Sequence record: ON075799
Reading direction: 5' to 3' (one strand)
Length of the DNA: 64,000 bases
Source of the DNA: Escherichia phage vB_EcoM_TH18
Part shown: piece after piece, positions 3,878-47,985 of the stretch
Layout of the letters: each line of letters opens with the position of its first letter
How positions within the stretch are numbered: position 1 is the stretch's first letter
Translations under genes and position numbers: made by a program
The notes under the pieces: model-generated
What the model was told of the DNA's origin: nothing
Seen by the model: only the letters and a program-made list of their open reading frames with translations
The model's database searches: none

Positions 3878-4275
3878 TTCACCCCCAGACTATCGTTATA
3901 AATATCAACAAACTGGTTATCTAGGCAAACCTGTTTTCCTGCTTGTGTTTTGCTATAACTTTTAACCTTTTTATCAAGGTCTTCTTTCAGTTGGTTATTA
4001 ATTTCTCTCTCTTTCACCAACATGGTTGACAACTCATCGATCTTATCCTGCTGTTGTTTTTTAAAAGCGTTGTTGTGATCTCTAACTTGCTGGTTAATCC
4101 TCTCCCATTTAAGGTCAGTATCGCTGACACCTGCGTTGTAGGATGATGTTAACTGGTCATTATACCAATGCTTTATCTCCACAACACCCCAAACGAGCAT
4201 CACACAACACAAAACGACACCTATCTGTTTTATGTTCTTAGAAAAGAAAGTTAACAGCGTTTTAAACCATATCAT
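3874..4275 (-). CDS. i-spanin-like protein (N-terminal TM helix plus coiled coil)
   Basis: 133 aa; hydrophobic N-terminus (IGVVLCCVMLVWGVV) followed by charged heptad-rich region. Confidence 0.55.
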   Translation of the reverse strand: MIWFKTLLTFFSKNIKQIGVVLCCVMLVWGVVEIKHWYNDQLTSSYNAGVSDTDLKWERINQQVRDHNNAFKKQQQDKIDELSTMLVKEREINNQLKEDLDKKVKSYSKTQAGKQVCLDNQFVDIYNDSLGVK

Positions 4276-5609
4276 GATATATCACCATCACACTCAATAA
4301 TATTTTCAATCTTCAACGTTGTTTTTCTGTTTTCAGAAATACACAGACTATTAAAATTGCTAATATCGTACTGGATCTTAGATGTATCGCTTACAGAAAC
4401 CTCTAACAGAACTGCTCCAGGCTGATATATTGTAAACCCATAACTATCTCCCTCCCCGTTCTCACACAGAATTTTGTACTCTCCTCTTGCCTCCGCTTCA
4501 TCAACATAAAGTCTGAGAGTTGGAAAATTATTTGCTATATCTTCTTTGTGAAGCCCAACATGATGTTTATCTTTTGTTGGCATCATGAGATAGAAAACTT
4601 CCGCAGGACAAACTCCATATAGTTTTGTAAAATATTTCCTACCTGTTGCTTTTCTTAATCTTTGGAAAATACTGAACATATTAACTTTAGATACATCATT
4701 AAACGGCAACGGTTGCACAGGGGTAACATTTTTGTCTACCTGCTGGCAACAAGATTCTAATCTGTCTAGGAACTCAACCAAAGAATCAAGTGAAAACTGT
4801 TTTGTCTCATCAAAGATATCTGACAGTTTCATTCCGTACATCCCGCTAAGATGTGACTTTGCCGATTCCCAACTTTCTATCTGAAGGCTGGCAATAGCCA
4901 TAGCCAGTTTCATTGTCTCTTTTTTCGAAATTGTATAGCCACGAGATTTGTATTTTTCAGATCTCAAAAGTGATATAATCGGGTATTCAGTCTTATGATT
5001 TACAACTAAGACTCTTTGAGCAATATGTTTTAAGAAATTGCTATCAAATTCCCACACACCATCCTTGAAGTTAAAAGCGCCCATGTTGATTGTAAAATCA
5101 ACTTTGCTAAAGATATCTTCTGTTGTTTTGAACACATCCACAGCAACACACTGTAATACAGGATCCTGCCCAAAGTACAGCGTTACGCTCTTATCTGTCA
5201 CACCAACTCTGGTAAGATTTGGGAGATCATCTTCTTCAAGATGAAAATTTTCACATCTGGACAAAGGGTCTGTGAAACATAAATGCGTATCCTGCCCATT
5301 ATCAAGGTTATAAAAATACCTAAAAGTTCTTTTTTGATTTTCCCATCCGTTTGTCTGTGCGGTTAAATCATACTTTCCACTTAAAAGATTTTTATCCATC
5401 ATGTACGCAATGAATATCTCAAGATTTTCCCAAGATGGGAAATACAAATCAAGATCGTTGACTTTACTATTAGAGAACAAAGAGGTTATTGCCCCGCCAG
5501 CTATCTTAACATCCAGCTTCGACAATAAATCATAAACACCTTTTGGTATAAAAGAGCACAAAATGTCGTACTCTCTTTGAAAATCTTCTTTTTTGAAAAC
5601 ATGCAACAT
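4272..5609 (-). CDS. Pol-beta-superfamily nucleotidyltransferase-fold protein, function unknown
   Basis: Start refined to MLHVFKK (ATG at 5609); motif IAGGAITSLFSNSKVNDLDLYF fits the hG[GS]-x9-13-DhD nucleotidyltransferase signature; long C-terminal domain unassigned. Confidence 0.55.
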   Translation of the reverse strand: MLHVFKKEDFQREYDILCSFIPKGVYDLLSKLDVKIAGGAITSLFSNSKVNDLDLYFPSWENLEIFIAYMMDKNLLSGKYDLTAQTNGWENQKRTFRYFYNLDNGQDTHLCFTDPLSRCENFHLEEDDLPNLTRVGVTDKSVTLYFGQDPVLQCVAVDVFKTTEDIFSKVDFTINMGAFNFKDGVWEFDSNFLKHIAQRVLVVNHKTEYPIISLLRSEKYKSRGYTISKKETMKLAMAIASLQIESWESAKSHLSGMYGMKLSDIFDETKQFSLDSLVEFLDRLESCCQQVDKNVTPVQPLPFNDVSKVNMFSIFQRLRKATGRKYFTKLYGVCPAEVFYLMMPTKDKHHVGLHKEDIANNFPTLRLYVDEAEARGEYKILCENGEGDSYGFTIYQPGAVLLEVSVSDTSKIQYDISNFNSLCISENRKTTLKIENIIECDGDIS

Positions 5610-5660
5610 CTTAGCTATCCTTAAGTACAAAACAAGATGCGTAGAGACTAGCACATAAAG

Positions 5661-5682
5661 AAAAACCCCGCAAGAGGCGGGG
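5661..5682 (-). terminator. rho-independent terminator downstream of the tRNA cluster
   Basis: Hairpin ccccgc-aagag-gcgggg with A-run on plus strand (U-run on minus-strand transcript). Confidence 0.55.
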
Positions 5683-5814
5683 TTAGGCATAGGAGAGGAG
5701 ATTGATTGGATTATTATTATAGTTATTTGAGAAAAGTGGCGAAGGAACCTTTACATGTCGAGAGTGTCTTACCGTTTACTCAGCCACGACCCTCCTTAGT
5801 GTCCACTTTAATTC

Positions 5815-5893
5815 TGGTTGCGAGTATTGGAATCGAACCTGCAATCTTCAGGGTATGAACCTAACATGGTAAATCCATTTCCACCAATCTGCA
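5815..5893 (-). tRNA. degenerate tRNA-like element (anticodon-loop CAU; weak acceptor and T stems)
   Basis: Canonical T-loop GGTTCGATTCC, D stem and anticodon arm TTAGG-TTCATAC-CCTGA present, but T stem and acceptor have several mismatches. Confidence 0.3.
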
Positions 5894-5899
5894 ATAATT

Positions 5900-5975
5900 T
5901 GGTGTGACGGACAGGATTCGAACCTGTGACCACCTAGTCTTCAGCAAGGCACTCTACCAACTGAGTTACCGTCAC
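5900..5975 (-). tRNA. tRNA-Phe (anticodon GAA)
   Basis: Manual cloverleaf: acceptor GTGACGG/CCGTCAC, D arm ACTC/GAGT, anticodon loop CTGAAGA, T loop TTCGAAT, encoded CCA. Confidence 0.8.
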
Positions 5976-5980
5976 ATAAT

Positions 5981-6057
5981 TGGTGGGCGATGAGGGACTC
6001 GAACCCCCAAAATTCAGGTTCTAAGCCTGACATGTATACCAATTCCATCAATCGCCC
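5981..6057 (-). tRNA. tRNA with anticodon UAG (Leu-reading) but short variable arm
   Basis: Acceptor GGGCGAT/ATCGCCC, anticodon arm TCAGG-CTTAGAA-CCTGA, T arm GGGGG-TTCGAGT-CCCTC, CCA encoded; D stem has one mismatch. Confidence 0.55.
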
Positions 6058-6071
6058 ATCTATATTAACAG

Positions 6072-6263
6072 TTATGGTTTTCCACGATACACAGAAATAG
6101 TTTTCCCATTAGCATTGATAACATAAGCGGTCTGATCCTCAGACAAAAACACTTTTTGATCAATGCCGGAAATAGCTATAGACTTTTGATGAGCACAATA
6201 CCCAACAATTTTCCCACAAAAAATTTGTTCATCATTTGGAGAGACGACTTTAACTGTTAACAT
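6072..6263 (-). CDS. small hypothetical protein (63 aa) inside the tRNA cluster
   Basis: Start refined to MLTVKVV with RBS agagga 6 nt upstream; the longer ORF-track start would overlap tRNA-Pro. Confidence 0.45.
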   Translation of the reverse strand: MLTVKVVSPNDEQIFCGKIVGYCAHQKSIAISGIDQKVFLSEDQTAYVINANGKTISVYRGKP

Positions 6264-6305
6264 GGTATCCTCTGTACATTTCTGCTTTGATATGTTTATG
6301 TTTGT

Positions 6306-6383
6306 TGGTCTGTCCGGTTGGATTTGAACCAACGACCTGGTCATCCCAAGTGACCCGCGCTACCCAAGCTGCGCTACGGACAG
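6306..6383 (-). tRNA. tRNA-Pro (anticodon UGG)
   Basis: Perfect cloverleaf: acceptor CTGTCCG/CGGACAG, D arm GCGC/GCGC, anticodon arm GGTCA-CTTGGGA-TGACC, T loop TTCAAAT, CCA encoded. Confidence 0.85.
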
Positions 6384-6467
6384 AGAAATGTAGATTTTAA
6401 TTGTCCCAGAATCTACTAACTGGTATCGCTGGCTAGGTGATATCTGTGACTTGATTAAGTCAAGAAT

Positions 6468-6559
6468 TGGCGGTTCCTGAAGGATTCGAACCTTCGGTGG
6501 GGAGATTCATTCCCAACGGCTTAACAGGCCGTCACCATCGACCACTCGGTCAAAGAACC
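6468..6559 (-). tRNA. type II (long variable arm) tRNA with anticodon GUU; identity uncertain
   Basis: 92 nt; acceptor GGTTCTT/AGGAACC (one G-U), anticodon arm ACGGC-CTGTTAA-GCCGT, ~20 nt variable arm, T arm GAAGG-TTCGAAT-CCTTC, CCA encoded. Confidence 0.55.
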
Positions 6560-6568
6560 TGAATATTT

Positions 6569-6645
6569 TGGTGGATCTGGTTGGGGTCGAACCAACAATC
6601 TCTCGATTAAAAGTCGAGTGACTTAAACCATTTGGCTACAAATCC
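6569..6645 (-). tRNA. tRNA-Lys (anticodon UUU), weak D arm
   Basis: Acceptor GGATTTG/CAGATCC, anticodon arm CTCGA-CTTTTAA-TCGAG, T arm GTTGG-TTCGACC-CCAAC, CCA encoded; D stem poorly paired. Confidence 0.55.
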
Positions 6646-6663
6646 GTTAAATTATCTTTAAAA

Positions 6664-6691
6664 TAGCTAATTACTCGCACATAATTAGCTA
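6664..6691 (-). terminator. hairpin plus U-run (terminator-like) within tRNA cluster
   Basis: Inverted repeat tagctaatt...aattagcta followed on the minus strand by TTTTAAAGA. Confidence 0.3.
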
Positions 6692-6878
6692 TACGCAACA
6701 ACTCTCCAAGGAGAGCACACTAATGATCGATTACGATTATATGACTAAATTTAGACCATCATAAGTGTTTGGCTTACGCCAGTAAAGAGCGGACTGCTCT
6801 GGGGTATCGGTAAGATGGTTGCAGCCATCTACCGAAAAATCACACCAAGCAACTAAACAAGCTACATTAAAGATAACT

Positions 6879-6967
6879 TGGAGGAGGCTGACAGAATCGA
6901 ACTGTCACCATATCTCTACAGCGGGACTGGGTTCAAACCAGCTTGTGCACCATGCACCCCAGCCTCC
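6879..6967 (-). tRNA. tRNA-Ser (anticodon UGA), type II
   Basis: 89 nt; acceptor GGAGGCT/AGCCTCC, anticodon arm GCTGG-TTTGAAC-CCAGT, long variable arm, T arm GACAG-TTCGATT-CTGTC, CCA encoded. Confidence 0.7.
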
Positions 6968-7038
6968 AAAGATAGCCTCTGCCGAGGATATACACCCAAC
7001 AAAGGAGGCGCTCAGGTCAGAAGAAATCTGAGCCTTAA

Positions 7039-7132
7039 TGGAGGAAGATGCCAGACTTGAACTGGCACACCCATTTCTGGGTTACTATCTCCTTAGCAGG
7101 GAGATCCCTTACCAAATTAGGGTTAATCTTCC
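7039..7132 (-). tRNA. tRNA-Ser (anticodon GCU), type II
   Basis: 94 nt; acceptor GGAAGAT/ATCTTCC, 3-bp D stem, anticodon arm TCTCC-CTGCTAA-GGAGA, T arm GCCAG-TTCAAGT-CTGGC, CCA encoded. Confidence 0.75.
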
Positions 7133-7153
7133 AATACCTTAGTAATTAAAAAC

Positions 7154-7243
7154 TGGTGGAGAAGGAGAGAATCGAACTCTCAAGCCGTTTTACCAGTCAG
7201 CACATTTCCAATGTGCTTTCGTCGCCAATCGATTTGCTTCTCC
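7154..7243 (-). tRNA. tRNA-Ser (anticodon GGA), type II
   Basis: 90 nt; acceptor GGAGAAG/CTTCTCC, anticodon arm GCACA-TTGGAAA-TGTGC, long variable arm, T arm GAGAG-TTCGATT-CTCTC, CCA encoded. Confidence 0.65.
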
Positions 7244-7252
7244 GTTTTAACT

Positions 7253-7328
7253 TGGCAGGGGATGGTTGATTCGAACAACCGATCACGGGGTCAAAGCCCG
7301 TTGCATTAGGCCACTATGCTAATCCCCT
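7253..7328 (-). tRNA. tRNA-Gln (anticodon UUG)
   Basis: Perfect cloverleaf: acceptor AGGGGAT/ATCCCCT, D arm GCAT/ATGC, anticodon arm ACGGG-CTTTGAC-CCCGT, T loop TTCGAAT, CCA encoded. Confidence 0.85.
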
Positions 7329-7333
7329 TTTGC

Positions 7334-7410
7334 ACGAGAGTGAGGAATAGAACCTCTTAGTCACTGGTTTTGGAGGCCAGCCTTCACCCAGTGAAGTTAC
7401 GCTACTCTCA
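7334..7410 (-). tRNA. non-canonical tRNA-like element
   Basis: Good acceptor (TGAGAGT/ACTCTCG) and T-loop-like GGTTCTATTCC, but D and anticodon regions do not fold into standard arms; no encoded CCA. Confidence 0.3.
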
Positions 7411-7417
7411 TTAAAAA

Positions 7418-7975
7418 CTATTTTCGAAAAGGACTTATGAAAAATGCCAACATCACTCTCTCTCTTGAAAAAGCTCTGTCTTCAGGAACCACACTCTTCA
7501 GTTTCCAACCGACATAAATTCGCCAGTAAAATTGTTTTCCAAACAATCTAAAAGACGGGACAAACGCGAATACACCCCACGCATTGTCATTCCACATCAA
7601 CAAATAGCCTTGTTGGTTATCCTCCACATCAGAGCTTACATGGAGGTTTCCTTTCCACTTTGTCACAGATGTGATTTCACGTCCAAGTACGTGATAGGAG
7701 AAATTGTAGGCTTTATTTCTCCACAACCAAGCAACTCGTTGTAGGTAAACACCAAAACTTCCTATTTTACGGACTTCTTCCCATCTCTCTATGTGTCCTC
7801 TATCACCGTCTATAGGATTATCATATGTCTCCATCCACCTGAAAATATAAGGCAGATGCCCTGTCTTCTCATTATAGAACGGAACAACAAAAGGAGCCAG
7901 AATAACACAGAGAACCGACATAACTGGGTCAAGAGGTGCTAACAGGATCCACGATAAATATTTTAAGTATCTCAT
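7418..7975 (-). CDS. hypothetical protein (185 aa, hydrophobic N-terminus)
   Basis: ORF from six-frame track; start overlaps stop of upstream gene (ATGA). Confidence 0.5.
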   Translation of the reverse strand: MRYLKYLSWILLAPLDPVMSVLCVILAPFVVPFYNEKTGHLPYIFRWMETYDNPIDGDRGHIERWEEVRKIGSFGVYLQRVAWLWRNKAYNFSYHVLGREITSVTKWKGNLHVSSDVEDNQQGYLLMWNDNAWGVFAFVPSFRLFGKQFYWRIYVGWKLKSVVPEDRAFSRERVMLAFFISPFRK

Positions 7976-8202
7976 GCAGGATCAAGCCTAGATATAATGT
8001 ACTGGTTTAAATCTGAATATGGGAAGATACTTTCAAAGATAACCTGTTTAAATCTGAAGCCGCACAAACCGAAAAGTACCTTCTGACACTCACCAAAAGA
8101 GCAATCTTTACCAACTTTTATCACAACCGTATCGGCAATCTGCACACTTTCTATCTCTTTAGATTCATGATGCCGTACTATGATTACTTTAGAAACCATC
8201 AT
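7972..8202 (-). CDS. hypothetical protein (76 aa)
   Basis: ORF from six-frame track; translationally coupled to downstream gene. Confidence 0.45.
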   Translation of the reverse strand: MMVSKVIIVRHHESKEIESVQIADTVVIKVGKDCSFGECQKVLFGLCGFRFKQVIFESIFPYSDLNQYIISRLDPA

Positions 8203-8327
8203 ACTCGTCCATATTAAAGCCTTCTACTAAAGATAGTAGATGTCTAGGGTTGGACCGCAAACGCAACCCCATGGAATTTGTTACGGTCTTCAGTTGACCC
8301 AAGCGGATTTCATTGACATCTTTTAAC

Positions 8328-8402
8328 TGGAGCATCCAGAGGGTATCGAACCCTCGACTTCAGCTTGGAAGGCTGTAGTTTTCCCAATTAAACTATGGAT
8401 GC
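8328..8402 (-). tRNA. tRNA-Gly (anticodon UCC)
   Basis: Acceptor GCATCCA/TGGATGC, D arm GTTT/AAAC, anticodon arm (A)CAGC-CTTCCAA-GCTG, T arm GAGGG-TTCGATA-CCCTC, CCA encoded. Confidence 0.75.
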
Positions 8403-8407
8403 ATATT

Positions 8408-8483
8408 TGGTGGGAGTGGTAGGCTCTGCCCCTACGTCCTCTCGATTATCGGTCGAGCGATCTACTAACTGATCTACACTCCC
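8408..8483 (-). tRNA. tRNA-like cloverleaf with Ile-type anticodon GAU but non-canonical D and T loops and C at position 33
   Basis: All four stems perfectly paired, CCA encoded, but D loop AGTTAGTA lacks GG, T loop is GGCAGAG (no TTC), anticodon loop is CCGATAA. Confidence 0.5.
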
Positions 8484-8546
8484 AAACTGTACTGGCCCAA
8501 CAACCACGATTGGAGGGTATCGTCACACATCAAAGCCAGTACAGTT
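8484..8546. other. long perfect hairpin (13-bp stem, ~37-nt loop) between two tRNA genes
   Basis: aaactgtactggc (8484-8496) and gccagtacagttt (8534-8546) are exact reverse complements. Confidence 0.6.
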
Positions 8547-8551
8547 TTAGT

Positions 8552-8641
8552 TGGTGTGCCGTGATAGAGTCGAACTACCCGAGTCCCTTTCGAGACAGGA
8601 GATTTACAGTCTCCCCCGCTACCCCTACGGTCTAACGACAC
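8552..8641 (-). tRNA. tRNA-Tyr (anticodon GUA), type II
   Basis: 90 nt; acceptor GTGTCGT/ACGGCAC (one G-U), anticodon arm GGAGA-CTGTAAA-TCTCC, long variable arm, T loop TTCGACT, CCA encoded. Confidence 0.7.
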
Positions 8642-8642
8642 A

Positions 8643-8990
8643 TTAACCTTGTTTGAATTGAACAATATCCGTCGAGAACGGTTTAGCTGCCTTAATAGGT
8701 GCTTTTTCTGAGTTATCTTTTTCGAGTAACTCTTCGTTTTCCTCATCAAAGTAATCAGAAAGCATCTGCTCACCTTTCTCAATAACATAACGAGCTATAT
8801 TTTCTCTGATATTGTCTTTTGTATTCACATTCTTCATCAAATCCCTAAGAACCTGATGAGCTTCAGGAATCATTGCAATCAGATTCGTTTTTAAATCTAG
8901 GATATTTTTCTCTAACTGAATTGCATTAGATTCCTCTTTCAGAGGACGACCTTTTCCTCTTCTACGTTTTGTAAGCTGCTTAGTAGCCAT
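8643..8990 (-). CDS. hypothetical protein (116 aa, basic N-terminus)
   Basis: Start refined to MATKQLTKRRRGKG; the longer ORF-track N-terminus overlaps the tRNA cluster; sigma70-like promoter just upstream. Confidence 0.5.
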   Translation of the reverse strand: MATKQLTKRRRGKGRPLKEESNAIQLEKNILDLKTNLIAMIPEAHQVLRDLMKNVNTKDNIRENIARYVIEKGEQMLSDYFDEENEELLEKDNSEKAPIKAAKPFSTDIVQFKQG

Positions 8991-9009
8991 TTTAAAACCC
9001 CACTTAATG

Positions 9010-9039
9010 ATATTATCAAATAAAAACATATCTGTCAAG
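9010..9039 (-). promoter_or_regulatory. sigma70-like promoter (TTGACA, 18-nt spacer, TAATAT)
   Basis: Minus strand reads TTGACA...TAATAT shortly upstream of the ATG at 8990. Confidence 0.5.
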
Positions 9040-9075
9040 TGGTATTTTAACATATTTACCAAGAAATTGAAAGTT

Positions 9076-9152
9076 TGGAGCACGGTGTCGGACTTGAACC
9101 GACATATATCTGTTTTGCAGACAGATCCGTAACCAAATTCCAGCAACCGTGC
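9076..9152 (-). tRNA. tRNA-Cys (anticodon GCA)
   Basis: Acceptor GCACGGT/ACCGTGC, anticodon arm TCTGT-CTGCAAA-ACAGA, T arm GTCGG-TTCAAGT-CCGAC, CCA encoded; D stem weak. Confidence 0.65.
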
Positions 9153-9228
9153 AATAAGTACCCCAGGTAGAGAACCTATAGAGTGGGTCTTACGAGCCGC
9201 GCTGACGATTCTCAAGTTGGGGTTAATC

Positions 9229-9305
9229 TGGTCGAGGAGACAGGATTCGAACCTGTGACCTACGGCTTAGAAGGCCGCTGCTCTATCCAACTGAGCTACA
9301 CCCCG
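9229..9305 (-). tRNA. tRNA-Arg (anticodon UCU)
   Basis: D arm GCTC-AGTTGGATA-GAGC, anticodon arm GCGGC-CTTCTAA-GCCGT, T arm ACAGG-TTCGAAT-CCTGT, CCA encoded; acceptor has one mismatch. Confidence 0.7.
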
Positions 9306-9505
9306 AAAATAAGAATGCTTTATAGTGTATGGTTACTCAACCTCACTCCAACTTCCACAGTTGGTGCTCTACGAGCATGACTACGTTTGAAATCAACGTT
9401 GCGCACCGATAGCTTTCTCACGCATTGTATGCCTCATTCCCAACAAATGCTGATCAGACATTTATATCGAATAATATAAGCTAATACACTATAAAACAAA
9501 CTTGT

Positions 9506-9602
9506 GGCTGGGTGATGGAATCGAACCACCTATGTATTCAACGGCTTCCCCGTCTATTTTCAGGATTATAAATCCTCGCCCTTGCCAAAGGGCTTACCCA
9601 GC
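9506..9602 (-). tRNA. over-long (97 nt) tRNA-like element, anticodon arm ambiguous
   Basis: Perfect acceptor (GCTGGGT/ACCCAGC), D arm GCCC-TTTGGCAA-GGGC, T arm GGTGG-TTCGATT-CCATC; central region has only a 4-bp stem with loop TTTATAA and ~30 extra nt; no encoded CCA. Confidence 0.35.
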
Positions 9603-9604
9603 AT

Positions 9605-9679
9605 TGGTGCTCGCAGCAGGTTTCGAACCTGCAACCCCCTGCTTACAAGGCAGGTGCTCTACCGTTGAGCTATACGAGC
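9605..9679 (-). tRNA. tRNA-Thr (anticodon UGU)
   Basis: Acceptor GCTCGTA/TGCGAGC, D arm GCTC/GAGC, anticodon arm CCTGC-CTTGTAA-GCAGG, T arm GCAGG-TTCGAAA-CCTGC, CCA encoded. Confidence 0.85.
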
Positions 9680-10044
9680 AATAAGACATTGCTTCCGATT
9701 AACAGCCTTGAGGCTTTACAGACCATATCTTGTGAGCCATAACCTGTGCCAAGGATTTCAGATGATAAACGAAATTTTATCTTTCAAGAGTCAACTTTCA
9801 AGTTTCATCTTTTACATTTAACCATTGACCTTTATTGTATGAACTTTTACTTAGTGGAAACAACAAGGCATCTTCGTGTGCCTCGCTGCATCTATGTCCT
9901 GTATTATCCTCATACATATACGATACATGGTGGGGGATATTTAACCTCCAACCCCCAGGAGGCAAGATGATGTAAACTTCGTTAATCAAAAGCAATGTTT
10001 TAAATTTCAAAACAAAGGAACGATAATGATATTATCAGAGCCTT

Positions 10045-10692
10045 TTAGAGAGAGTGCTCAATCTCAATTTCTGTCTTAGCGTTTGACTCAGACAACGCAA
10101 AATCAACGTTAGACAAGAAATCTTCAATCTCTTCTTCAAGAGAACGAATCTTAGAAGCCAGTTCAAGAGGATCCACAACCGATGGTGTGTTCATCATTCG
10201 AATAGGAGCTTCCACAGTCTTAATCTGCTCTGCATCTGGCGCTTTATCACGTTGGATATATGGCGCTCTTGCATTTTCAAGTTTATCTTCCAGAGATTTT
10301 TCTTCTTTTGCCAGAAGAAGCTGTGCAGAAGCACGCTGTGCACAAAGTTTGTTTAACAACTCTTGTTTAAAGCAAATCGTCCGTTTGCGTTCGATTGCCT
10401 CAGCAACTGTCATAGACACATTACCAATTTTGACAATTGTCTCAGCATTAGACTTAACAATTTTTGCTTTCAGTTCATCACGCACTGCCAAGAGGTCTTG
10501 CAGACTTTGATAGTCGTTGATCGCAGATTTCTTAAAATCATCAACAGAGCCGATATAACCCGGAATCTTACAATTATTCTCAGTTCCTTTTGCAATCTTA
10601 ATACAATCAAGATTGTAGATACGCTTATTGATCTTATCTTCAATTTTAGAGATAGAAGCAAGTGCACGAGTTACGGAAATCTTAGTAGACAT
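10045..10692 (-). CDS. hypothetical protein (215 aa, charged coiled-coil-like)
   Basis: ORF from six-frame track; charged, heptad-like composition. Confidence 0.55.
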   Translation of the reverse strand: MSTKISVTRALASISKIEDKINKRIYNLDCIKIAKGTENNCKIPGYIGSVDDFKKSAINDYQSLQDLLAVRDELKAKIVKSNAETIVKIGNVSMTVAEAIERKRTICFKQELLNKLCAQRASAQLLLAKEEKSLEDKLENARAPYIQRDKAPDAEQIKTVEAPIRMMNTPSVVDPLELASKIRSLEEEIEDFLSNVDFALSESNAKTEIEIEHSL

Positions 10693-10765
10693 GCGATCTC
10701 TCCTATGTAAATCAGCTTTGATAAAGTAACTATCCAGAAAAACAAAAACTATGTCAAGAAAAATT

Positions 10766-10957
10766 TTAATCTTTTACAGCATCTTTTATAGAATCACAAA
10801 GATCTTGAACAACATCAGATGTCGGTGACAAAATCATCTCGTCGGCTGCTGCTATAGCATCTGATGCTAAATCAACAAACGGAGTTGTTACCGCAGAAGT
10901 CACTTCAACAGCCGTTATTGTTACTTCGCTTGCAATCTTAAGCAAAGATCCTATCAT
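10766..10957 (-). CDS. hypothetical small acidic protein (63 aa)
   Basis: ORF from six-frame track in an otherwise gene-free gap. Confidence 0.4.
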   Translation of the reverse strand: MIGSLLKIASEVTITAVEVTSAVTTPFVDLASDAIAAADEMILSPTSDVVQDLCDSIKDAVKD

Positions 10958-11033
10958 AATCTCAACCCTCCTGAATATCCGTGATTCCCTTTATTTAACG
11001 ACGCTGGCTCACGGTGGCACTCTCGTCAATAAA

Positions 11034-11357
11034 CTATTTTTTAGTTTTCTTACCGTTTTCTACAGAAATGCTTGTTTTCTGTTTCGCTTCTCGTTCGCGC
11101 TTTGTTTTCCCAGTGCGAATACGATATGAAGCAGAAATAACTTCACCACCAATGACACGAGACACAGATTCGTAATACATTTCAGTATTACCGTCTTCAT
11201 CTTTGCGTTTTTTCAGAACTGCTACAGTTTGCGTTTTACCACCAAGGCGCACATCGTGCGGTGCAGAATGTGTCTGCGTGGATTTTGATCCAAACTGAAA
11301 AGGTTGCTTTATCGCCTCGATAGCTGACACCTTTTTAGCAGACTGTTTCTTAGCCAT
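11034..11357 (-). CDS. hypothetical basic protein (107 aa)
   Basis: Start refined to MAKKQSAKK with strong RBS ggagga upstream; lysine/arginine-rich. Confidence 0.55.
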   Translation of the reverse strand: MAKKQSAKKVSAIEAIKQPFQFGSKSTQTHSAPHDVRLGGKTQTVAVLKKRKDEDGNTEMYYESVSRVIGGEVISASYRIRTGKTKREREAKQKTSISVENGKKTKK

Positions 11358-11408
11358 TAAGTTTTCTCCTCCGAAAACAATAAACATAGTTTATTTCGTG
11401 TGCCACAT

Positions 11409-11485
11409 TTGGTGGCCCCTGCTGGACTTGAACCAGCGACCAAGCGATTATGAGTCACCTGCTCTATCCAACTGAGCTAAGGGGC
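11409..11485 (-). tRNA. tRNA-Met (anticodon CAU; initiator/elongator/Ile2 not distinguished)
   Basis: Acceptor GGCCCCT/AGGGGCC, D arm GCTC-AGTTGGATA-GAGC, anticodon loop CTCATAA, T arm GCTGG-TTCAAGT-CCAGC, CCA encoded. Confidence 0.8.
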
Positions 11486-11818
11486 CGAATCTCTTAATAT
11501 GAGATGATATTATCCTGTATGATCTACATTGTCAAGAGATATTTTAAAATTTTATACATCCCAGTTTTCTTCTTGATAACAACCTTCCCCGAATCCAACT
11601 TCTTTTTCAAAATCAATACCTTTTTTCATACATTCCTCACATTAACAGATATTGTTTTCAAACTCAAAACGTAAAATACGAACTCTGTCAATACACTGCT
11701 GTAATCTACAAAGCAACAACTCAACTTGTTTATGCGTCTCTTCAGTATACGTTTTGGTCATCTTGCTTTTCTCCGTGATCTTTTCATTGCAGCTTCTGCA
11801 CGTCTTTGTTTACGATTT

Positions 11819-12067
11819 TTAGATGGTTGTTCTAAGGATCCTGATAACGTACTTTGTTGTGCTAATCCCTTCGATGGGGTAGAAATAATATAATCCCCCT
11901 TCTTCACCGAACGATGCAATATATTTCCAGGATTCAATTCCAAAACCAGTTGTAGAAAAAGCGACATCATCCGCTTCTTCAAGCGCATCATCATGTGTTT
12001 TATGGAAAGACTCATGTTCTACGTACTCCCCGTTATCAGACTTAAGAACCATTTTTAATTTAAACAT
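11819..12067 (-). CDS. hypothetical acidic protein (82 aa)
   Basis: ORF from six-frame track with ggtga RBS-like sequence upstream; preferred over the overlapping frame 11758..12015. Confidence 0.45.
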   Translation of the reverse strand: MFKLKMVLKSDNGEYVEHESFHKTHDDALEEADDVAFSTTGFGIESWKYIASFGEEGGLYYFYPIEGISTTKYVIRILRTTI

Positions 12068-12135
12068 AACAAATCACCACTAATTTTATTTTTATCTTGT
12101 TATTAGATCTTATCAGTGGTGTTTATTTTTGTCAA

Positions 12136-12342
12136 TTAAACTATTCCAAAAGCCTTGACACCACGCTCGTATTCTGCTACTGCAAGCTCATGAGGAGAAA
12201 GGTCACATGAGGCATCCTTGCAAAGACCGACTTCGATGTAATGTTCTTCTAGTCCATCAAGGATATCTGGCTCCCACGCTTTTTTCATGTCTGGATGGAC
12301 TGATGCACGATTTCTATCGTACTTCGCTACGAGATTTCTCAA
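12136..12342 (-). CDS. hypothetical protein (68 aa)
   Basis: ORF from six-frame track, downstream of the nadV terminator. Confidence 0.45.
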   Translation of the reverse strand: MRNLVAKYDRNRASVHPDMKKAWEPDILDGLEEHYIEVGLCKDASCDLSPHELAVAEYERGVKAFGIV

Positions 12343-12354
12343 AACATTCTCCTC

Positions 12355-12382
12355 AAAATAAAAACCCCTCCATGTGGAGGGG
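12355..12382 (-). terminator. rho-independent terminator after nadV
   Basis: Hairpin cccctcca/tggagggg preceded on the plus strand by an A-run (U-run on the minus transcript). Confidence 0.55.
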
Positions 12383-12395
12383 AATGATTATGGTG

Positions 12396-14111
12396 TTAAA
12401 GCTGTGATAAGGCTCTTTGGCGAATTTCTTCAAGATCCTCATCCACAAGCAGCTTACCATTAACAAAAACTGTTCTAAGCTCGTTATCATGGTCAGATAC
12501 TTGGTTAATACCAAGATTATCTACCAGCTTCAACTCGCCATCATCACCACGAATAACTTTAACAAAACCTTTCGCAGATTTCTTCCCAAGATCAGTCTTA
12601 GGCTCTTTTACGACCATTACTTGTCTGCCATCAATCACAGCACCAGTAGCTTTTACAGCCATCCCAAGAGAATCACGGGTTGTATATTGCGTTGTATAAG
12701 ACCCTACACCAAACACAATGTTACTGGAAGCAAACCCTCGTTCTTCAAGGCGCTCAAAGATCTCTTTAGCACGGGAGATTGTGATAGAGTCTCCGTAGAT
12801 TAAACCAACATGGCTATCAAGAACTTTGTAACCCAAAGAGTTTACACTACCACCAAAGATTTCCCACAAGCATTGTACAGCACCCTTAACTTCCTCTTTT
12901 GTCAGATAATTTGTAAATTCATCACCTGTCAAAGATTTCCAATCTACGAGGTTGCCTTCCGAATCTCGCATCCATGAAGTGTCTCTGGACATCTCGTATA
13001 AAGTGACATATTTGCCATTTTTAAACAGCACAGCATCCATGTCACAGCACTGCCCCGTTGCCCATTCTTCCTGAGAGCACACGCGATAACCAGCAATGAT
13101 GTGCTCTGGGATCCCACTGTCAGGTCGGAAGACCAGCTTGCCATCACGAGACATAATCTCATCTTTCAGGATTTTTGCTGCCTGTGTAATGATTGCCCAA
13201 AAATCATAGCTGTCAGCGACGTATGAAGCATAACCTGATGGGAAAATCTCTGTCACATAACGCTTTAAGAACTCAACTTCAGCACGAAAACGTGCTTCAT
13301 CAAGCGGCATATCAGGATTTTCCTGCTGGATACGCTCAACAATAAAACCAATGTTCGTTGTCGCTACGCTATGCTCAGATGCGGGAATAGACCCAGCAAC
13401 AAAGCGACCTTTCATGTTGTAATAGCGATTTGCGTAAACAATCGCTGGAATTGTATCTGTGCCCATTGAGCTAATCAGTTGCCCAAATTCGCTCTGTGCT
13501 GCGTCATGTGTTCCAGCTTCACCACGGTATGCAAAACAATGGTTCTGGAAAGGAACATGATCGTTGTTATCACATGTTTTCTTTGCCCACAGTTCTGATA
13601 GTTTACGGTATTGCCAGAAAGTCGTTGCCGTGGTAATTGTCTTCCAAGTCTCCGATGAGATCACGCTCTCAAGGAAGTTCGGCAGCCAGTAAAAATCAGG
13701 ATGCGTGTTCTGAATCGTGAACATGGGAACCTGAACAGGAACAAGAGTTCCTTCAGGCAAAGCCCTAATTTCAATTGGGAGATAACCAAGGTCATGCAAT
13801 TTCTCAAAACCCCAAGTTTCAACAGCATCCTTCCCAATGCTCAAATCACAAATCTCTTTGTAATCCTGAATCGCCTTTTCTTTCGGTAAAGCGAAGAAAT
13901 TATTATTAAACATGTCGATCAGGAACCACTTGATAAATCCCTGAAGACCTGCAAACATCACACGATGGTCATCATCTGCAAAGTGTACAAAGTGTTTCAC
14001 ATTGCGTGGGGTCATGTTGTCTTGAACAAACTGTGAACGTCTATCGTACATCGAGATGTGACTTGGTTTATAAAAATCTGCGAACAGCAATGGACTTTCT
14101 TTGTGAAGCAT
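12396..14111 (-). CDS. nadV: nicotinamide phosphoribosyltransferase (NAMPT/NadV family)
   Basis: 571 aa; overall resemblance to the NAMPT family by eye (not searched); adjacent to a PRPP synthetase gene. Confidence 0.7.
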   Translation of the reverse strand: MLHKESPLLFADFYKPSHISMYDRRSQFVQDNMTPRNVKHFVHFADDDHRVMFAGLQGFIKWFLIDMFNNNFFALPKEKAIQDYKEICDLSIGKDAVETWGFEKLHDLGYLPIEIRALPEGTLVPVQVPMFTIQNTHPDFYWLPNFLESVISSETWKTITTATTFWQYRKLSELWAKKTCDNNDHVPFQNHCFAYRGEAGTHDAAQSEFGQLISSMGTDTIPAIVYANRYYNMKGRFVAGSIPASEHSVATTNIGFIVERIQQENPDMPLDEARFRAEVEFLKRYVTEIFPSGYASYVADSYDFWAIITQAAKILKDEIMSRDGKLVFRPDSGIPEHIIAGYRVCSQEEWATGQCCDMDAVLFKNGKYVTLYEMSRDTSWMRDSEGNLVDWKSLTGDEFTNYLTKEEVKGAVQCLWEIFGGSVNSLGYKVLDSHVGLIYGDSITISRAKEIFERLEERGFASSNIVFGVGSYTTQYTTRDSLGMAVKATGAVIDGRQVMVVKEPKTDLGKKSAKGFVKVIRGDDGELKLVDNLGINQVSDHDNELRTVFVNGKLLVDEDLEEIRQRALSQL

Positions 14112-14174
14112 GATCTCAACCCTCCAACCTAAAAGCGTATTTTTTCACTAAAACGTATCTTTGTCAAGATGTAA

Positions 14175-14984
14175 TTAAAAATTTTCTGTCCAGTCGTAGT
14201 ACGCATAGATTTCGTCAACGCCACCGTTGAGAATAAATTCTTTCCCACGAGAGAAAATCCCATGCGTGACATACAAGATAACACGTTTAGCACCAGCAGC
14301 TTTCAAGGCTTGAGCTAAGTTTGTAAACGTAAACCCACCATCGCAGATATCATCAACAATCAGGCACATCTTCCCATCGACATCACCAAACACTGTTGTG
14401 CCTGTGATTGCCCCTGTTCCCACATCACGGATTTTACCAGCTTCAACCACAGATAGTTCCAAGGCATCAGCTACCTTCTGGGTCTTCTTGCGTGCACCTG
14501 CATCTGGAGCAACCAACACAAGCGATTCGTCCGTAAGCAGATCAAAATCAAACTTCATGTTCAAGAACAATTCAGTCTGAGAACGAATTTTCACGTTATC
14601 AAGCAGTGCTGCGGATACGTCACTGTGTGGGTCATCGACGATGACTTTGTGGAAACCCAGCGAGTTAATCATTGTGGCAAAGACTTTCACCGACAGAGCT
14701 TCACCAGGGTTCATAACTCGGTCTTGTCGAGCATACGGGATGTACGGCAGGTGTAAAACCTTTTCCACACCAACATCCAAATTGCCAAGACGATTGACTG
14801 CATCAACAAGCAACGCAAGACACATCACATCTTGGGAGTGCTTAATGCGAGCGAAGATATCCACAAAACCAATCGAACCCTTAGGGATATAGTGCATATC
14901 GATCTTCACCTGCTCCTCACCACCACTGAAGGTAAAATGGTCAACTGGAACATGCAACTTGTTCAAACTCAAACGAATATTCAT
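14175..14984 (-). CDS. prs: ribose-phosphate pyrophosphokinase (PRPP synthetase)-like
   Basis: Motifs PYIPYARQDR, VAPDAGARKK and PRPP-binding LIVDDICDGGFT match the Prs family pattern. Confidence 0.7.
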   Translation of the reverse strand: MNIRLSLNKLHVPVDHFTFSGGEEQVKIDMHYIPKGSIGFVDIFARIKHSQDVMCLALLVDAVNRLGNLDVGVEKVLHLPYIPYARQDRVMNPGEALSVKVFATMINSLGFHKVIVDDPHSDVSAALLDNVKIRSQTELFLNMKFDFDLLTDESLVLVAPDAGARKKTQKVADALELSVVEAGKIRDVGTGAITGTTVFGDVDGKMCLIVDDICDGGFTFTNLAQALKAAGAKRVILYVTHGIFSRGKEFILNGGVDEIYAYYDWTENF

Positions 14985-36133: not shown

Positions 36134-36326
36134 ACACCCCTCGCTTGTGCCTGTACATTGCCAGAGGCCATACAGAACTCACTATAAAGCATTTCCATGC
36201 CCAACCCCATGCAGTTTTTGGTGCATAGACCTGTTCAAGTGTTTTACTATTCTCCATCTCTGCGGTATGCACAAACCATACCGCAATATACAATGTAACT
36301 GTAATGTAGATAAAGCTATTAATCAT
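36108..36326 (-). CDS. small membrane protein (72 aa)
   Basis: Two hydrophobic segments (FIYITVTLYIAVWFV; CFIVSSVWPLAM). Confidence 0.45.
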   Translation of the reverse strand: MINSFIYITVTLYIAVWFVHTAEMENSKTLEQVYAPKTAWGWAWKCFIVSSVWPLAMYRHKRGVYEEKTGTA

Positions 36327-37380
36327 TCATCTTATCCCAACACATTTGTTGCGCTGTCATCAAGACGTCAGCAGCAAAATCAAGGTCTGTTGACTTCGGT
36401 AAATGCGTGCTCTTGTACAGAGTGTTACGAATATAATCATCCTTCTCTTCTGCCCAAGCCAAGAGCTTCTCCAAAGACCATGCACCATTCCTGATTGCAA
36501 GAAGCTCCTGAGCATCAGGTCTTTTTACTAAGACTTTACCTTCTGCTAGGATCTCCTCAGCCATACGCATCAATCTTACCAAATGGAGAGCATGTTTGCA
36601 ATCGTACCCGTACTTTTCTTCTAAGTCATGCCGAACCAGATTTCTGTTTTTAACCCATGCCCAGTAGTTCTTATGTTTTTCCTTTGCTTGTTTATGCTCC
36701 TCTGCCAGATATTTAACAATTAAAATTGGCTTACGTCTCTTATCCTCGTCAGAGAACTGCTCGTAAGGAACTTTACGAATAGAACCATCAGAGTTAAACA
36801 AGCCAGCATTGTCGTGTGTTCCGATCACGCCATAGATATTATCACCCATGGGTAAAAAGACACACAACTTGTTAAGATCATCCAACATTTTCTGGAAGTC
36901 TTTGTGTTTTGTAAGATTATCATCCATCCACGAGTGTGTCAAGCGCATGAACTCTTTTTGTGTTGGTTGCTCTTTAGGTTGCGGGTTATTAATCCATTTA
37001 TTATGGCCTTTGATACGCTTAAGTTGCGCCATCGCATACCCAGAAAAAGTAAAAGCAACTTTGCTGGATAGGAGTTTTGGCGCTTGCTCGCGTAGGTACT
37101 CGTAAACATCTGAAGTTTGCAGAATGTCACCTCTATCAACAAACATAAGCTCGATGATGTTTGGGTTCATATCAACGAACAACTTCATGTAGTTTGTTAG
37201 CTCATACAGCTTACCATCCTCTTCATCAATAAGGGTCATTTCTCTGTCAACGAAAAATGGGGTAAGAATGCTTTTAGGCTCTGCACAATAAATTCCGCGA
37301 ATATCCACATCGGATGTTGGTAAGTTAGTTCCATATGCAATGCTGCCGGAGTAACAGCGCATTAGTTCTAGTTTCTTCAT
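36319..37380 (-). CDS. Pol-beta-superfamily nucleotidyltransferase, function unknown
   Basis: N-terminal signature YSGSIAYGTNLPTSDVDIRGIY (GS-x9-13-DhD) typical of minimal and cGAS/DncV-like nucleotidyltransferases; 353 aa. Confidence 0.6.
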   Translation of the reverse strand: MKKLELMRCYSGSIAYGTNLPTSDVDIRGIYCAEPKSILTPFFVDREMTLIDEEDGKLYELTNYMKLFVDMNPNIIELMFVDRGDILQTSDVYEYLREQAPKLLSSKVAFTFSGYAMAQLKRIKGHNKWINNPQPKEQPTQKEFMRLTHSWMDDNLTKHKDFQKMLDDLNKLCVFLPMGDNIYGVIGTHDNAGLFNSDGSIRKVPYEQFSDEDKRRKPILIVKYLAEEHKQAKEKHKNYWAWVKNRNLVRHDLEEKYGYDCKHALHLVRLMRMAEEILAEGKVLVKRPDAQELLAIRNGAWSLEKLLAWAEEKDDYIRNTLYKSTHLPKSTDLDFAADVLMTAQQMCWDKMND

Positions 37381-46879: not shown

Positions 46880-47240
46880 TGATGAAACGAGTTTGTCAGA
46901 TAATCTCTTTCGATTAATCCTGGGTATGCTTCTTTAAGTTTTGTGGCAAATTTATAACACAGAGATTCTGCCGATGTACCGCTGCTTTCGCAGTATTTTC
47001 ACGGACTAGACTATATCACGATCTTGTGACCACTCACAAGACCCTCCACATTTCGCCATTCAAGGCTACTCTACTCGCTTCTTCACATCAGGTGAAGCTG
47101 ATGCTATGCTTTCGATAGTCGTTAGAGACAATCTCTTGCCTACGGGGTTAGCTCTGCCCCAACAGGGTTTAGCCTTTCTTACCAGCTTATTGTTTATTCA
47201 GCTATGCCCGTTTAGTGGAGTTATTCGACAACCATCACTG
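46880..47240 (-). mobile_element. putative group I intron in nrdD (no ORF; boundaries approximate)
   Basis: ~360 nt non-coding insert between nrdD segments; R-like gatagtcgtt (~47120) and S-like agactatatc (~47003) elements. Confidence 0.5.
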
Positions 47241-47753: not shown

Positions 47754-47985
47754 TCCCGCACCACTACGTGCTGCTGCATGTCACCATGCAGACCAGACCA
47801 TATCTTCATGCTTAAAGCATGTCTGCCGTTTGGGGTGTCATCAGCTTACACTCTACATCCCTACATTCATCAGGATTGGTCGTTAGGCATTTACGGTTGA
47901 TACCGATTTAGCACGGGATTCCCTCCATAGAGGATTCCCCCGTTTAGGCAGATTTTACATGAGCAGTTATAGTTTACCCATGCTT
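47726..47985 (-). mobile_element. putative group I intron in nrdD (no ORF; boundaries approximate)
   Basis: Non-coding insert with a 38-nt block (47755-47792) identical to one in the terminase intron (609-646); S-like agaccatatc and R-like ggtcgtta elements. Confidence 0.5.

Follow-up and report, generated by a model that had tools for sequence, protein, structure and literature searches.

Positions 5815-11486 of a 64,000-nucleotide (nt) stretch of Escherichia phage vB_EcoM_TH18 DNA (sequence record ON075799) carry an island of tRNA genes, which is described here together with a CCA-adding enzyme encoded about 28 kb away. The whole 64,000-nt stretch is referred to as the window, and all coordinates are positions in it. 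By sequence comparison, the phage is assigned to the genus Avunavirus of the Vequintavirinae, in the Av-05 group. Seventeen tRNA genes (one of them weak) and two tRNA-like genes were identified in the island with ARAGORN and Rfam, in agreement with a preliminary description of the window that had counted about 19 tRNA genes on the minus strand. These 19 genes are the following.

11410-11486, minus strand: tRNA-Ile2 (CAU, ileX type), named 'Met' by ARAGORN; Rfam 65.3 bits; A73-CCA
9605-9679, minus strand: tRNA-Thr(UGU); ARAGORN; Rfam 73.6 bits
9503-9602, minus strand: tRNA-like RNA; Rfam tRNA model 33.1 bits; C73-ACA
9229-9305, minus strand: tRNA-Arg(UCU), reading AGA/AGG; ARAGORN; Rfam 69.9 bits
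9076-9152, minus strand: tRNA-Cys(GCA); ARAGORN; Rfam 53.1 bits
8552-8641, minus strand: tRNA-Tyr(GUA), class II, A73; ARAGORN; in Rfam only the tRNA-Sec model, 28.5 bits
8408-8483, minus strand: tRNA-Ile(GAU), C33; Rfam 53.4 bits, not called by ARAGORN
8328-8402, minus strand: tRNA-Gly(UCC); ARAGORN; Rfam 63.4 bits
7330-7411, minus strand: tRNA-Trp(CCA)-like gene; Rfam tRNA-Sec model 32 bits; G73, 3' CAA
7253-7328, minus strand: tRNA-Gln(UUG); ARAGORN; Rfam 61.2 bits
7154-7243, minus strand: tRNA-Ser(GGA), A73; ARAGORN
7039-7132, minus strand: tRNA-Ser(GCU), U73; ARAGORN; Rfam 41 bits
6879-6967, minus strand: tRNA-Ser(UGA), U73; ARAGORN
6569-6645, minus strand: tRNA-Lys(UUU); ARAGORN; Rfam 61.3 bits
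6468-6559, minus strand: tRNA-Asn(GUU), class II, 92 nt, G73; ARAGORN; Rfam 56.8 bits
6306-6383, minus strand: tRNA-Pro(UGG); ARAGORN; Rfam 62.4 bits
5981-6057, minus strand: tRNA-Leu(UAG), class I, 77 nt, A73; ARAGORN; Rfam 63 bits
5900-5975, minus strand: tRNA-Phe(GAA); ARAGORN; Rfam 68.4 bits
5815-5893, minus strand: degenerate CAU tRNA; ARAGORN only; Rfam 25.1 bits

ARAGORN called 16 tRNA genes, all on the minus strand and all within 5815-11486, and none elsewhere in the 64 kb. Thirteen of the 16 were confirmed by the Rfam tRNA model RF00005 at its gathering score (29 bits), which also recovered a 17th gene, Ile(GAU) at 8411-8483, that ARAGORN had missed. With default filters, the threshold was reached by 14 genes, at 41 to 73.6 bits. 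In a permissive scan, the tRNA match at 9506-9602 also exceeded the gathering score, the CAU gene (5818-5893) remained under it, and 7336-7407 matched only the tRNA-Sec model RF01852, below that model's gathering score of 47 bits. Most candidates of the preliminary description stood up to covariance scoring, the CAU and Trp-like genes being among the exceptions. Ser(UGA), Ser(GGA), and Tyr, all three class II with long variable arms, were called by ARAGORN only. The three Ser isoacceptors that had been listed (UGA, GCU, and GGA) were all called by ARAGORN, but the list had left out Leu(UAG), Asn(GUU), and Ile(GAU). N73-CCA is encoded at the 3' end of all 17 tRNA genes and of neither look-alike, so that the statement that most of the genes encode CCA holds for 17 of 19. 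Several genes of the island are separated by gaps of just 1 to 9 nt. A plus-strand 'tRNA-Pro(GGG)' at about 6768-6837, reported by ARAGORN at relaxed settings only, was rejected, as it has mismatched stems, a 6-nt T loop, no CCA, the wrong orientation, and no Rfam support.

To relate the tRNA set to codon usage, 100 non-overlapping open reading frames (ORFs) of the window were compared with 56 ORFs from 90 kb of E. coli K-12, and 40 anticodon classes were ranked by phage/host codon demand. The tRNA set followed the codons that the phage over-uses: phage tRNAs hold eight of the nine classes with the highest demand (Mann-Whitney p = 6.6e-5), and none of the nine classes at the bottom has a phage tRNA. 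The demand ratio was 5.2 for Arg(UCU), 2.8 for Ile2, 2.6 for Thr(UGU), and 2.3 for Leu(UAG), followed by Cys and Lys (1.8 each) and Ser(UGA) and Pro(UGG) (1.6 each). This is the pattern of classical codon compensation, in a phage of 40% G+C in a host of 51% G+C. Because the tRNA set matches the over-used codons, codon supply is the best-supported function of the island, with a probability of roughly 0.6.

The region 5600-11700 is 100% identical to partial records of Escherichia phages 18-1-2, 19-1-2, and 24-2-1, from marmot samples in China, and 95.7% identical to Escherichia phage Av-05 (Vequintavirinae, Avunavirus). Between this phage and Av-05, the tRNA genes have changed at about half the rate of the surrounding DNA when two replaced segments are excluded. 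The feature tables of all four records show only hypothetical coding sequences across the island and no tRNA. The genome announcement of Av-05 reported 9 tRNAs (PMC4463512), against 17 + 2 genes here, indicating that the tRNA content of Avunavirus is badly under-annotated. At the Arg(UCU) site, Av-05 has a structurally different UCU gene, apparently without a normal D arm (approximately 5865-5950 of the Av-05 excerpt). In place of most of the CAU tRNA, it has nonhomologous sequence that includes a small annotated ORF (2216-2540 of the excerpt).

The E. coli K-12 tRNA genes were aligned pairwise with the cognate phage tRNAs. The tRNA at 11410-11486, which the preliminary description had listed as Met, is identical to E. 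coli ileX at 74 of 77 positions and to metT at 56 of 77. It has a CAU anticodon in an ileX-type body with the acceptor strand GGCCCCU (C4-G69 and C5-G68), placing it with tRNA-Ile2. From this ileX-like body, it should be a lysidine-dependent reader of AUA (CAU converted to lysidine-AU). The puzzling 'tRNA-Met' that recurs in phage annotations is here a tRNA-Ile2 predicted to read AUA. All other phage tRNAs are just 54 to 76% identical to their E. coli cognates, indicating that they are old phage genes and not recent captures. A recent capture of the whole island from the host was rejected on the same grounds, Ile2 alone being host-like and the tRNA-like RNA having no match in 5,426 E. coli genomes.

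In the second CAU gene (5815-5893), two acceptor-stem pairs are mismatched and the T stem is weak or broken. Its homologs in PVP-SE1 and GAP31, which with 4MG are the Seunavirus phages compared here, are 82 nt long and well paired. Av-05 has other sequence over most of this stretch and keeps the last 25 nt. The CAU gene of the present phage is probably a decaying pseudogene.

The CCA-adding enzyme is encoded by the following gene.

39188-40432, minus strand (ORF to 40444; start at 40432 probable): cca, class II CCA-adding/repair enzyme with HD domain; Pfam, PHROG, and NCBIfam matches

The preliminary description had assigned a class II CCA-adding enzyme to this position, and the protein is full length with all expected domains and motifs. 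Pfam matches were PolyA_pol (PF01743, 77.7 bits), PolyA_pol_RNAbd (PF12627, 28.7 bits), and HD (33.1 bits), and the match to phrog_2244, 'tRNA nucleotidyltransferase', had an E value of 1e-144. The protein carries GGAVRD..DRD (motif A), RRDLTIN (motif B), EDPLRILR (motif D), and the H..HD residues. Motif D (EDxxR) separates CCA addition from poly(A) addition, and the combination of motifs points to a CCA-adding enzyme of the E. coli type and not to a poly(A) polymerase. The NCBIfam model PRK10885, 'multifunctional CCA addition/repair protein', matched over its full length at 414 bits and missed the equivalog cutoff of 451. By these scores, phage Cca is a close relative of the E. coli enzyme but not an equivalog by the NCBI threshold. 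The PDB holds chains related to it. The predicted activities are CCA addition and, through the HD domain, hydrolysis of 2',3'-cyclic and 2'/3' phosphates.

The proposed pairing of the island with cca was borne out in part. The association of cca with tRNA-rich phages is real, but it is loose: besides the distance between the two, cca homologs occur in 475 phage records from many families, including other Vequintavirinae genera, and Septuagintavirus phages carry cca with merely 5 tRNA genes. Among Escherichia phage records, at most 49 have cca, compared with 103 that have the tRNA-like RNA of the island. From these counts and the silence of the rV5 paper, the rV5-like phages, which have a 6-tRNA island, probably do not have cca. 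Since 17 of the 19 island genes encode CCA, the natural role of the phage enzyme would be maintenance or repair and not biosynthesis, as for E. coli Cca; the two defective CCA ends would offer a possible biosynthetic task. That phage Cca repairs tRNA 3' ends cleaved by the host, as had been proposed, is plausible, with the host cleavage step being a supposition. About 2 kb from cca lies a third nucleotidyltransferase gene (36319-37380, minus strand) with an RlaP domain (PF10127; phrog_388). This Pfam family is described as 'RNA repair pathway DNA polymerase beta family', but none of the scanned ORFs was recognized as an RNA ligase or kinase partner.

Candidate transcription signals of the island are listed below.

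9010-9038, minus strand: sigma-70-like promoter (TTGACA, 17 nt, TAATAT), consensus match only
11507-11535, 10729-10757, and 9774-9801, minus strand: similar sigma-70-like sites, consensus matches only
5664-5684, minus strand: intrinsic-terminator-like hairpin after the last island gene, 8-bp stem with 6 G-C pairs, then TTTCTTT

The five top sigma-70 matches (10 of 12 positions) in 5400-12400 are all on the coding strand, each ahead of a gene block, and promoters are annotated in the tRNA clusters of the rV5 and PVP-SE1 records. For codon supply, host RNA polymerase would probably transcribe the island early, starting at several sigma-70-type promoters and ending at one strong terminator. Host processing enzymes would cut the transcripts into tRNAs, which would then be charged and enlarge the pool for AGA/AGG, AUA, ACA, CUA, UGY, AAR, UCA, CCA, and GGA. 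Phage Cca would keep the 3' ends of this enlarged pool complete and would rebuild the ends of the Trp-like and tRNA-like RNAs.

Several tRNAs of the island have unusual bodies that are conserved in related phages. tRNA-Asn(GUU) is 92 nt long and has a 20-nt variable region with a 4-bp stem, making it class II, whereas E. coli tRNA-Asn is a class I tRNA of 76 nt. Class II Asn homologs of 85 to 91 nt were found in Av-05, GAP31, 4MG, PVP-SE1, and the 349-kb Salmonella phage 7t3. Over the six sequences, 99.3% of positions in the fold are paired, and two-sided changes occur in 14 of 24 pairs, including the variable-arm helix. The base-paired variable arm that defines class II is thus present, with two-sided changes in two of its four stem pairs; the stem reads GGGA/UCCC, UGGA/UCCA, GAGA/UCUC, or GAGU/ACUC, and the relatives have a GNRA-type loop. 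The arm length, G1-C72, G2-C71, and G73 are traits shared with Ser tRNAs. The E. coli AsnRS identity set consists of G34, U35, U36, and G73 (PMC9976931), and GUU and G73 are invariant in the six homologs, so that the asparagine identity set is complete. A derivation from E. coli tRNA-Tyr was rejected: the T arms are the same, but the two tRNAs as a whole are only 59% identical, a value no higher than for the Ser tRNAs. No description of a long-arm tRNA-Asn in phages was found in literature searches.

The opposite change is seen in tRNA-Leu(UAG), a class I tRNA of 77 nt with a 5-nt variable loop, a Leu-type D loop (GAAUUGGUAUA), and A73. Its copies in GAP31, 4MG, and PVP-SE1 are 84 to 87% identical, and E. 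coli leuW has 85 nt and a long arm. E. coli LeuRS requires A73 and elbow elements of the D and T loops, and the long arm is dispensable (PMC9976931). The leucine identity set is present in the phage tRNA, with A73, G18 and G19 in the D loop GAAUUGGUAUA, and the T loop UUCGAGU.

At position 33, tRNA-Ile(GAU) carries C and not the near-universal U; it also has A18 in the D loop and a T loop, GGCAGAG, without U54 and U55. C33 was found in all four phages examined (this phage, PVP-SE1, GAP31, and 4MG). The PVP-SE1 gene has all the same oddities and a compensating T-stem change, and the elbows of the GAP31 and 4MG genes are normal. The usual modifications m5U54 and pseudouridine-55 are thus precluded in this phage and PVP-SE1, where U54 and U55 are missing. 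In the Trp(CCA)-like gene, the D arm gives way to a 6-bp hairpin whose loop is UGG. The 81-nt 'tRNA-Trp' of PVP-SE1 forms this hairpin too, from different but complementary bases, indicating covariation. The Av-05 copy ends in G-CCA and was called Trp by ARAGORN at a relaxed threshold. The discriminators of the Ser tRNAs are U73 (UGA and GCU) and A73 (GGA), and four E. coli Ser tRNAs examined have G73. In vivo, this base is described as a determinant of SerRS identity, and it is also described as an antideterminant for LeuRS and TyrRS. The long-arm tRNA-Asn, the short-arm tRNA-Leu, and the C33 tRNA-Ile bear on how far synthetases tolerate a change of tRNA class.

In the tRNA-like RNA (9503-9602), the acceptor stem is 7 bp long, the D stem has 6 bp and closes a 4-nt loop, and the 'anticodon' stem has 5 bp and carries the 5-nt loop UUAUA; the T arm is normal. 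Its variable hairpin lies between the conserved A-rich linkers GAAAAUA and GAAUACAUA. A covariance model (R1) gave it 107.6 bits. Homologs were found in 186 phage records of Avuna-, Vequinta-, Seuna-, Mydo-, and Henunavirus, in which it is either unlabeled or entered as tRNA-OTHER, tRNA-???(atcc), tRNA-Lys, or tRNA-TERM. Each of 12 distinct sequences folds independently to the same shape, with an 'anticodon' loop of 5 to 7 nt. Across the 12 sequences, 99.3% of cells pair, and two-sided changes occur in 9 of 23 pairs, compared with 0 to 1 in slid controls. The elbow pair is G19-C56 in seven sequences and U19-A56 in five, with no exceptions; the five U-A sequences are related, so that the switch may be a single event.

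The loop and the 3' end of this RNA vary by lineage. The loops are UUAUA, UUUUA, CAUCCA, CAGCCA, CCUCCA, and CAUCAAA, and a single IMG/VR contig has AAUCAAG. The copies of Seuna-, Mydo-, and Henunavirus end in U73-CCA, those of Avunavirus in C73-ACA or U73-ACA, and those of rV5-like phages in A73-CCU or A73-CAU. The RNA of this phage is 92.8% identical to that of rV5, and six orthologous tRNAs are 70 to 76% identical. The tRNA-like RNA is therefore more conserved between the two phages than the ordinary tRNAs compared. A pattern scan of IMG/VR for its core returned 9 loci. A covariance-model search of the window and 59 loci with relatives of phrog_1491, the family of an island ORF described below, gave hits in this phage, Av-05, and one metagenomic contig only. 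No description of this Vequintavirinae RNA was found in literature searches. The RNA mimics the L shape of a tRNA and very probably does not decode.

Two other readings of the look-alikes were rejected. With introns allowed, ARAGORN had interpreted 9506-9602 as a 'Pro(GGG)' tRNA with an 18-nt intron; the covariation over 12 sequences indicates continuous helices and a short loop instead. A tRNA-Sec identity was examined for the Trp-like gene and the tRNA-like RNA because of their 6-bp D stems, with at least 47 bits, a UCA anticodon, and an 8/5 acceptor/T arrangement as criteria. The Trp-like gene scored 32 bits, and the tRNA-like RNA matched the general tRNA model alone; the two have the wrong anticodon (CCA in one, a 5-nt loop in the other) and 7/5 arms.

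Just downstream of the island terminator lies a further nucleotidyltransferase gene.

4272-5609, minus strand: Gad2-family nucleotidyltransferase, class II tRNA-nucleotidyltransferase/poly(A)-polymerase fold

The product is 36.5% identical over 167 amino acids (aa) to 'Gad2' of SPbetaL6 and matched a Brevibacillus laterosporus protein with an E value of 2e-32. This homology and the predicted nucleotidyltransferase fold place it in the Gad2 family. Motif A (AGG..NDLDLYF) and motif B (DFTINM) are kept, and the EDxxR template motif is absent. PF26128 was present in 75 of 75 homologs; the protein matched nothing in a PDB sequence search or in a Pfam copy without PF26128. A homolog lies beside the tRNA cluster in Avuna-, Seuna-, Mydo-, and Henunavirus and is absent beside the small cluster of rV5. 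Blocking of Gabija by Gad2 has been shown solely for the Bacillus and Brevibacillus homologs.

Some of these results weigh against codon supply as the whole explanation. The codon match does not account for Ser(GCU) and Ile(GAU), with demand ratios of 0.77 and 1.02, for the unusual tRNA bodies kept across genera, or for a conserved RNA that does not decode. E. coli has its own cca, and a phage copy may therefore not be needed. The promoters are consensus matches only, their total of 23 being little higher than the 16.4 +/- 4.2 of shuffled sequences, and host codon usage rested on a 65-kb sample from one strain.

The alternative that survives best is that the island tRNAs resist nucleases and replace, or act as decoys for, host tRNAs destroyed by tRNA-targeting systems such as PARIS AriB, PrrC, or retron PtuAB, with Cca mending ends attacked by CCA-directed toxins. 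As a function of the island this is tentative, but it is compatible with codon supply and would be a plausible overlay on it. PARIS AriB cuts E. coli tRNA-Lys(UUU), Thr(UGU), and Asn(GUU) beside a U36AAUC motif, and the T5 versions of these three tRNAs neutralize PARIS, with one resistance change of T5 tRNA-Lys at U39 (PMC12409363). All three AriB targets are represented in the island, together with Tyr, but codon demand already accounts for their membership in the set. Phage tRNA-Thr and tRNA-Asn have G39, compared with U39 in E. coli (thrU for Thr), which breaks the UAAU motif; as a sign of AriB evasion, this is suggestive only. Phage tRNA-Lys, on the other hand, retains U36AAUC: its anticodon loop equals that of E. 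coli lysT, with G41 replacing A41, and most other anticodon loops of the island also equal those of E. coli. The conserved odd bodies (class II Asn, class I Leu, Ile with C33 and a changed elbow, and the tRNA-like RNA) would fit such a role, but no known nuclease is tied to changes of the variable arm or elbow. The adjoining Gad2-family anti-defense gene and the HD phosphohydrolase domain retained in Cca are also consistent with it.

In an extended form of this idea, the re-engineered bodies of Asn, Leu, Ile, and Trp and the tRNA-like RNA would escape or decoy host enzymes that recognize shape, such as immunity nucleases or CCA-directed toxins, and Cca and the Gad2-family enzyme with its nucleotidyltransferase fold would belong to the same counter-defense module. 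This form is likewise speculative. The odd conserved RNAs nevertheless provide concrete material for studying how phage tRNAs evade tRNA-targeting immunity, and the codon-supply case, which is statistically testable and holds, provides a baseline against which the idea of tRNAs as anti-defense can be judged.

A further explanation, known in general form from the phage tRNA literature, is the replacement of a collapsing host pool. In that case, host nucleic acids would be degraded or tRNA synthesis stopped, and the island and Cca would sustain late translation regardless of codon bias. Fourteen amino acids are covered, including common ones (Phe, Lys, Asn, Tyr, and Ile(GAU)), and the demand ratios of Phe, Asn, Tyr, and Ile(GAU) are near 1. 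Several strong-looking promoters, although consensus matches, would drive the island, and a CCA repair enzyme would suit a tRNA pool that is not renewed. However, the set has no Ala, Val, Asp, Glu, or His tRNA, no elongator or initiator Met tRNA, and none of the major Leu, Arg, and Gly species, and it therefore cannot stand in for the tRNAs of the host. The codons of the absent classes are exactly the ones avoided by the phage. This explanation is unlikely.

That the odd RNAs are not ordinary decoders, with SerRS, which reads the long arm and ignores the anticodon, charging the class II tRNA(GUU) (G1-C72, G2-C71, C11-G24, G73, and a Ser-sized variable region of 17 to 20 nt) and with the tRNA-like RNA, whose body is kept closer to rV5 than the six ordinary tRNAs while its loop varies from UUAUA and UUUUA to CAUCCA, CAUCAAA, and AAUCAAG, acting as a recoding tRNA, regulator, or decoy, is the least probable explanation, since GUU and G73 are exactly the E. 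coli AsnRS identity set (PMC9976931) and make normal Asn charging the simpler reading, Ser at Asn codons would harm every phage protein, decoding by loops of 5 to 6 nt is not known, and a discriminator that varies among U, C, and A argues against one fixed synthetase.

Small ORFs are interleaved with the tRNA genes, as the preliminary description had stated.

10045-10692, minus strand: ORF of 215 aa, the largest of seven; PHROG match (phrog_1491)
11034-11357, 10766-10957, 8643-8993, 7972-8202, 7418-7975, and 6072-6263, minus strand: six other small ORFs; PHROG matches

Each of the seven matches one conserved PHROG family without assigned function (E value of 1e-25 or lower). Relatives of the phrog_1491 ORF with 40 to 42% identity are found in many T5-sized contigs of 104 to 122 kb, and the PVP-SE1 record mentions similarity of its phrog_1491 ORF to T5.085. 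The database label 'tail fiber protein' for this ORF is doubtful; it may be an ORF associated with tRNA regions. PADLOC models applied to the island ORFs and the two extra nucleotidyltransferases gave a single weak match, Cmr5 (E = 0.0012), to ORF 11034-11357.

Directly upstream of the island, at 12396-14984 on the minus strand, are genes for nicotinamide phosphoribosyltransferase and ribose-phosphate pyrophosphokinase. This NAD salvage pair could offset defenses that deplete NAD. Farther away, Rfam detected a group I intron at 47774-48014 (minus strand, 79.8 bits) between ORFs 47967-49142 and 47235-47753, which match the N-terminal and middle parts, respectively, of the Pfam model of anaerobic ribonucleotide reductase (NrdD). 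From this arrangement, nrdD appears to be split by a self-splicing group I intron. When about 41700-64000 was compared with 12001-62000 of Av-05, the gene order diverged past a DprA-like gene, with PhoH, endolysin-like, and nrd genes here and tail-fiber and structural genes in Av-05. Either the genomes are rearranged relative to each other, or the records differ in assembly or orientation.

The components of the island can be compared with several known systems. E. coli Cca aligns with the phage enzyme over residues 5-412 and has the same head, neck, and HD architecture and the motifs GGxVRD..DxD, RRD, EDxxR, and HD; the phage enzyme differs in being phage encoded and in scoring 414 bits against the cutoff of 451. 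Gad2 is an anti-Gabija protein of SPbeta-like Bacillus phages. The homolog beside the island exceeds it by about 45 residues and has an additional C-terminal domain, and unlike Gad2 of those phages, it occurs with a Gram-negative host and at a tRNA island.

In phage T4, the tRNA region includes two stable RNAs (species 1 and 2) of unknown function, the nearest analogy to the tRNA-like RNA. Some T4 tRNA genes do not encode CCA and rely on CCA addition by the host; T4 is not known to encode a cca of its own. The likeness lies in a tRNA cluster with tRNA-like stable RNAs that have acceptor-type ends, and in 3' ends of which some are built after transcription. With allo-tRNAs and tRNA-Sec-like species (Mukai et al., PMC5389517), the tRNA-like RNA shares a long variable arm, a 6-bp/4-nt D arm, and a changing 'anticodon' on a kept body. 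Unlike those, it has a 7/5 acceptor/T arrangement, not 8/4 or 9/3, a loop of 5 to 7 nt, and U, C, or A as discriminator, not G. The PARIS-neutralizing tRNAs of T5 have the same three anticodons as the Lys, Thr, and Asn tRNAs of the island, in which position 39 is changed in Thr and Asn. In contrast to T5, the phage Lys retains U39-C40, and the tRNA bodies of the two phages have nothing but the tRNA fold in common. A further link to T5 is the phrog_1491 ORF with its relatives in T5-sized contigs.

The closest counterpart is the annotated tRNA cluster of Seunavirus (PVP-SE1, GAP31, and 4MG), which occupies the same genomic slot with the same gene order: the phrog_1491 ORF, the tRNA genes from Thr to Phe, the CAU tRNA, a nucleotidyltransferase ORF of 445 to 475 aa, Rz spanins, and terminase. 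Also common to both are the class II Asn, the class I Leu(UAG), the tRNA-like RNA, and cca (65 to 66% identity), and PVP-SE1 specifically shares the odd Ile(GAU) and the Trp with a hairpin for a D arm. The Seunavirus islands have 22 to 24 tRNA genes, compared with 17 + 2 in this phage, in which Glu, Asp, His, Ala, Val, Arg(ACG), and Leu(UAA) are absent. Seunavirus tRNA-Lys(UUU) is 84 to 87 nt long, with about 10 extra nt between the D arm and the anticodon stem, and that of this phage has a normal length of 77 nt. Unlike in Seunavirus, the CAU gene is degenerate and two genes do not have an intact CCA. Position and tRNA gene order place the present island among those of the Vequintavirinae. 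Judged by these features, the Avunavirus island is a reduced and under-annotated Vequintavirinae tRNA island, a kind already known, and an island with cca is usual equipment of large virulent phages.

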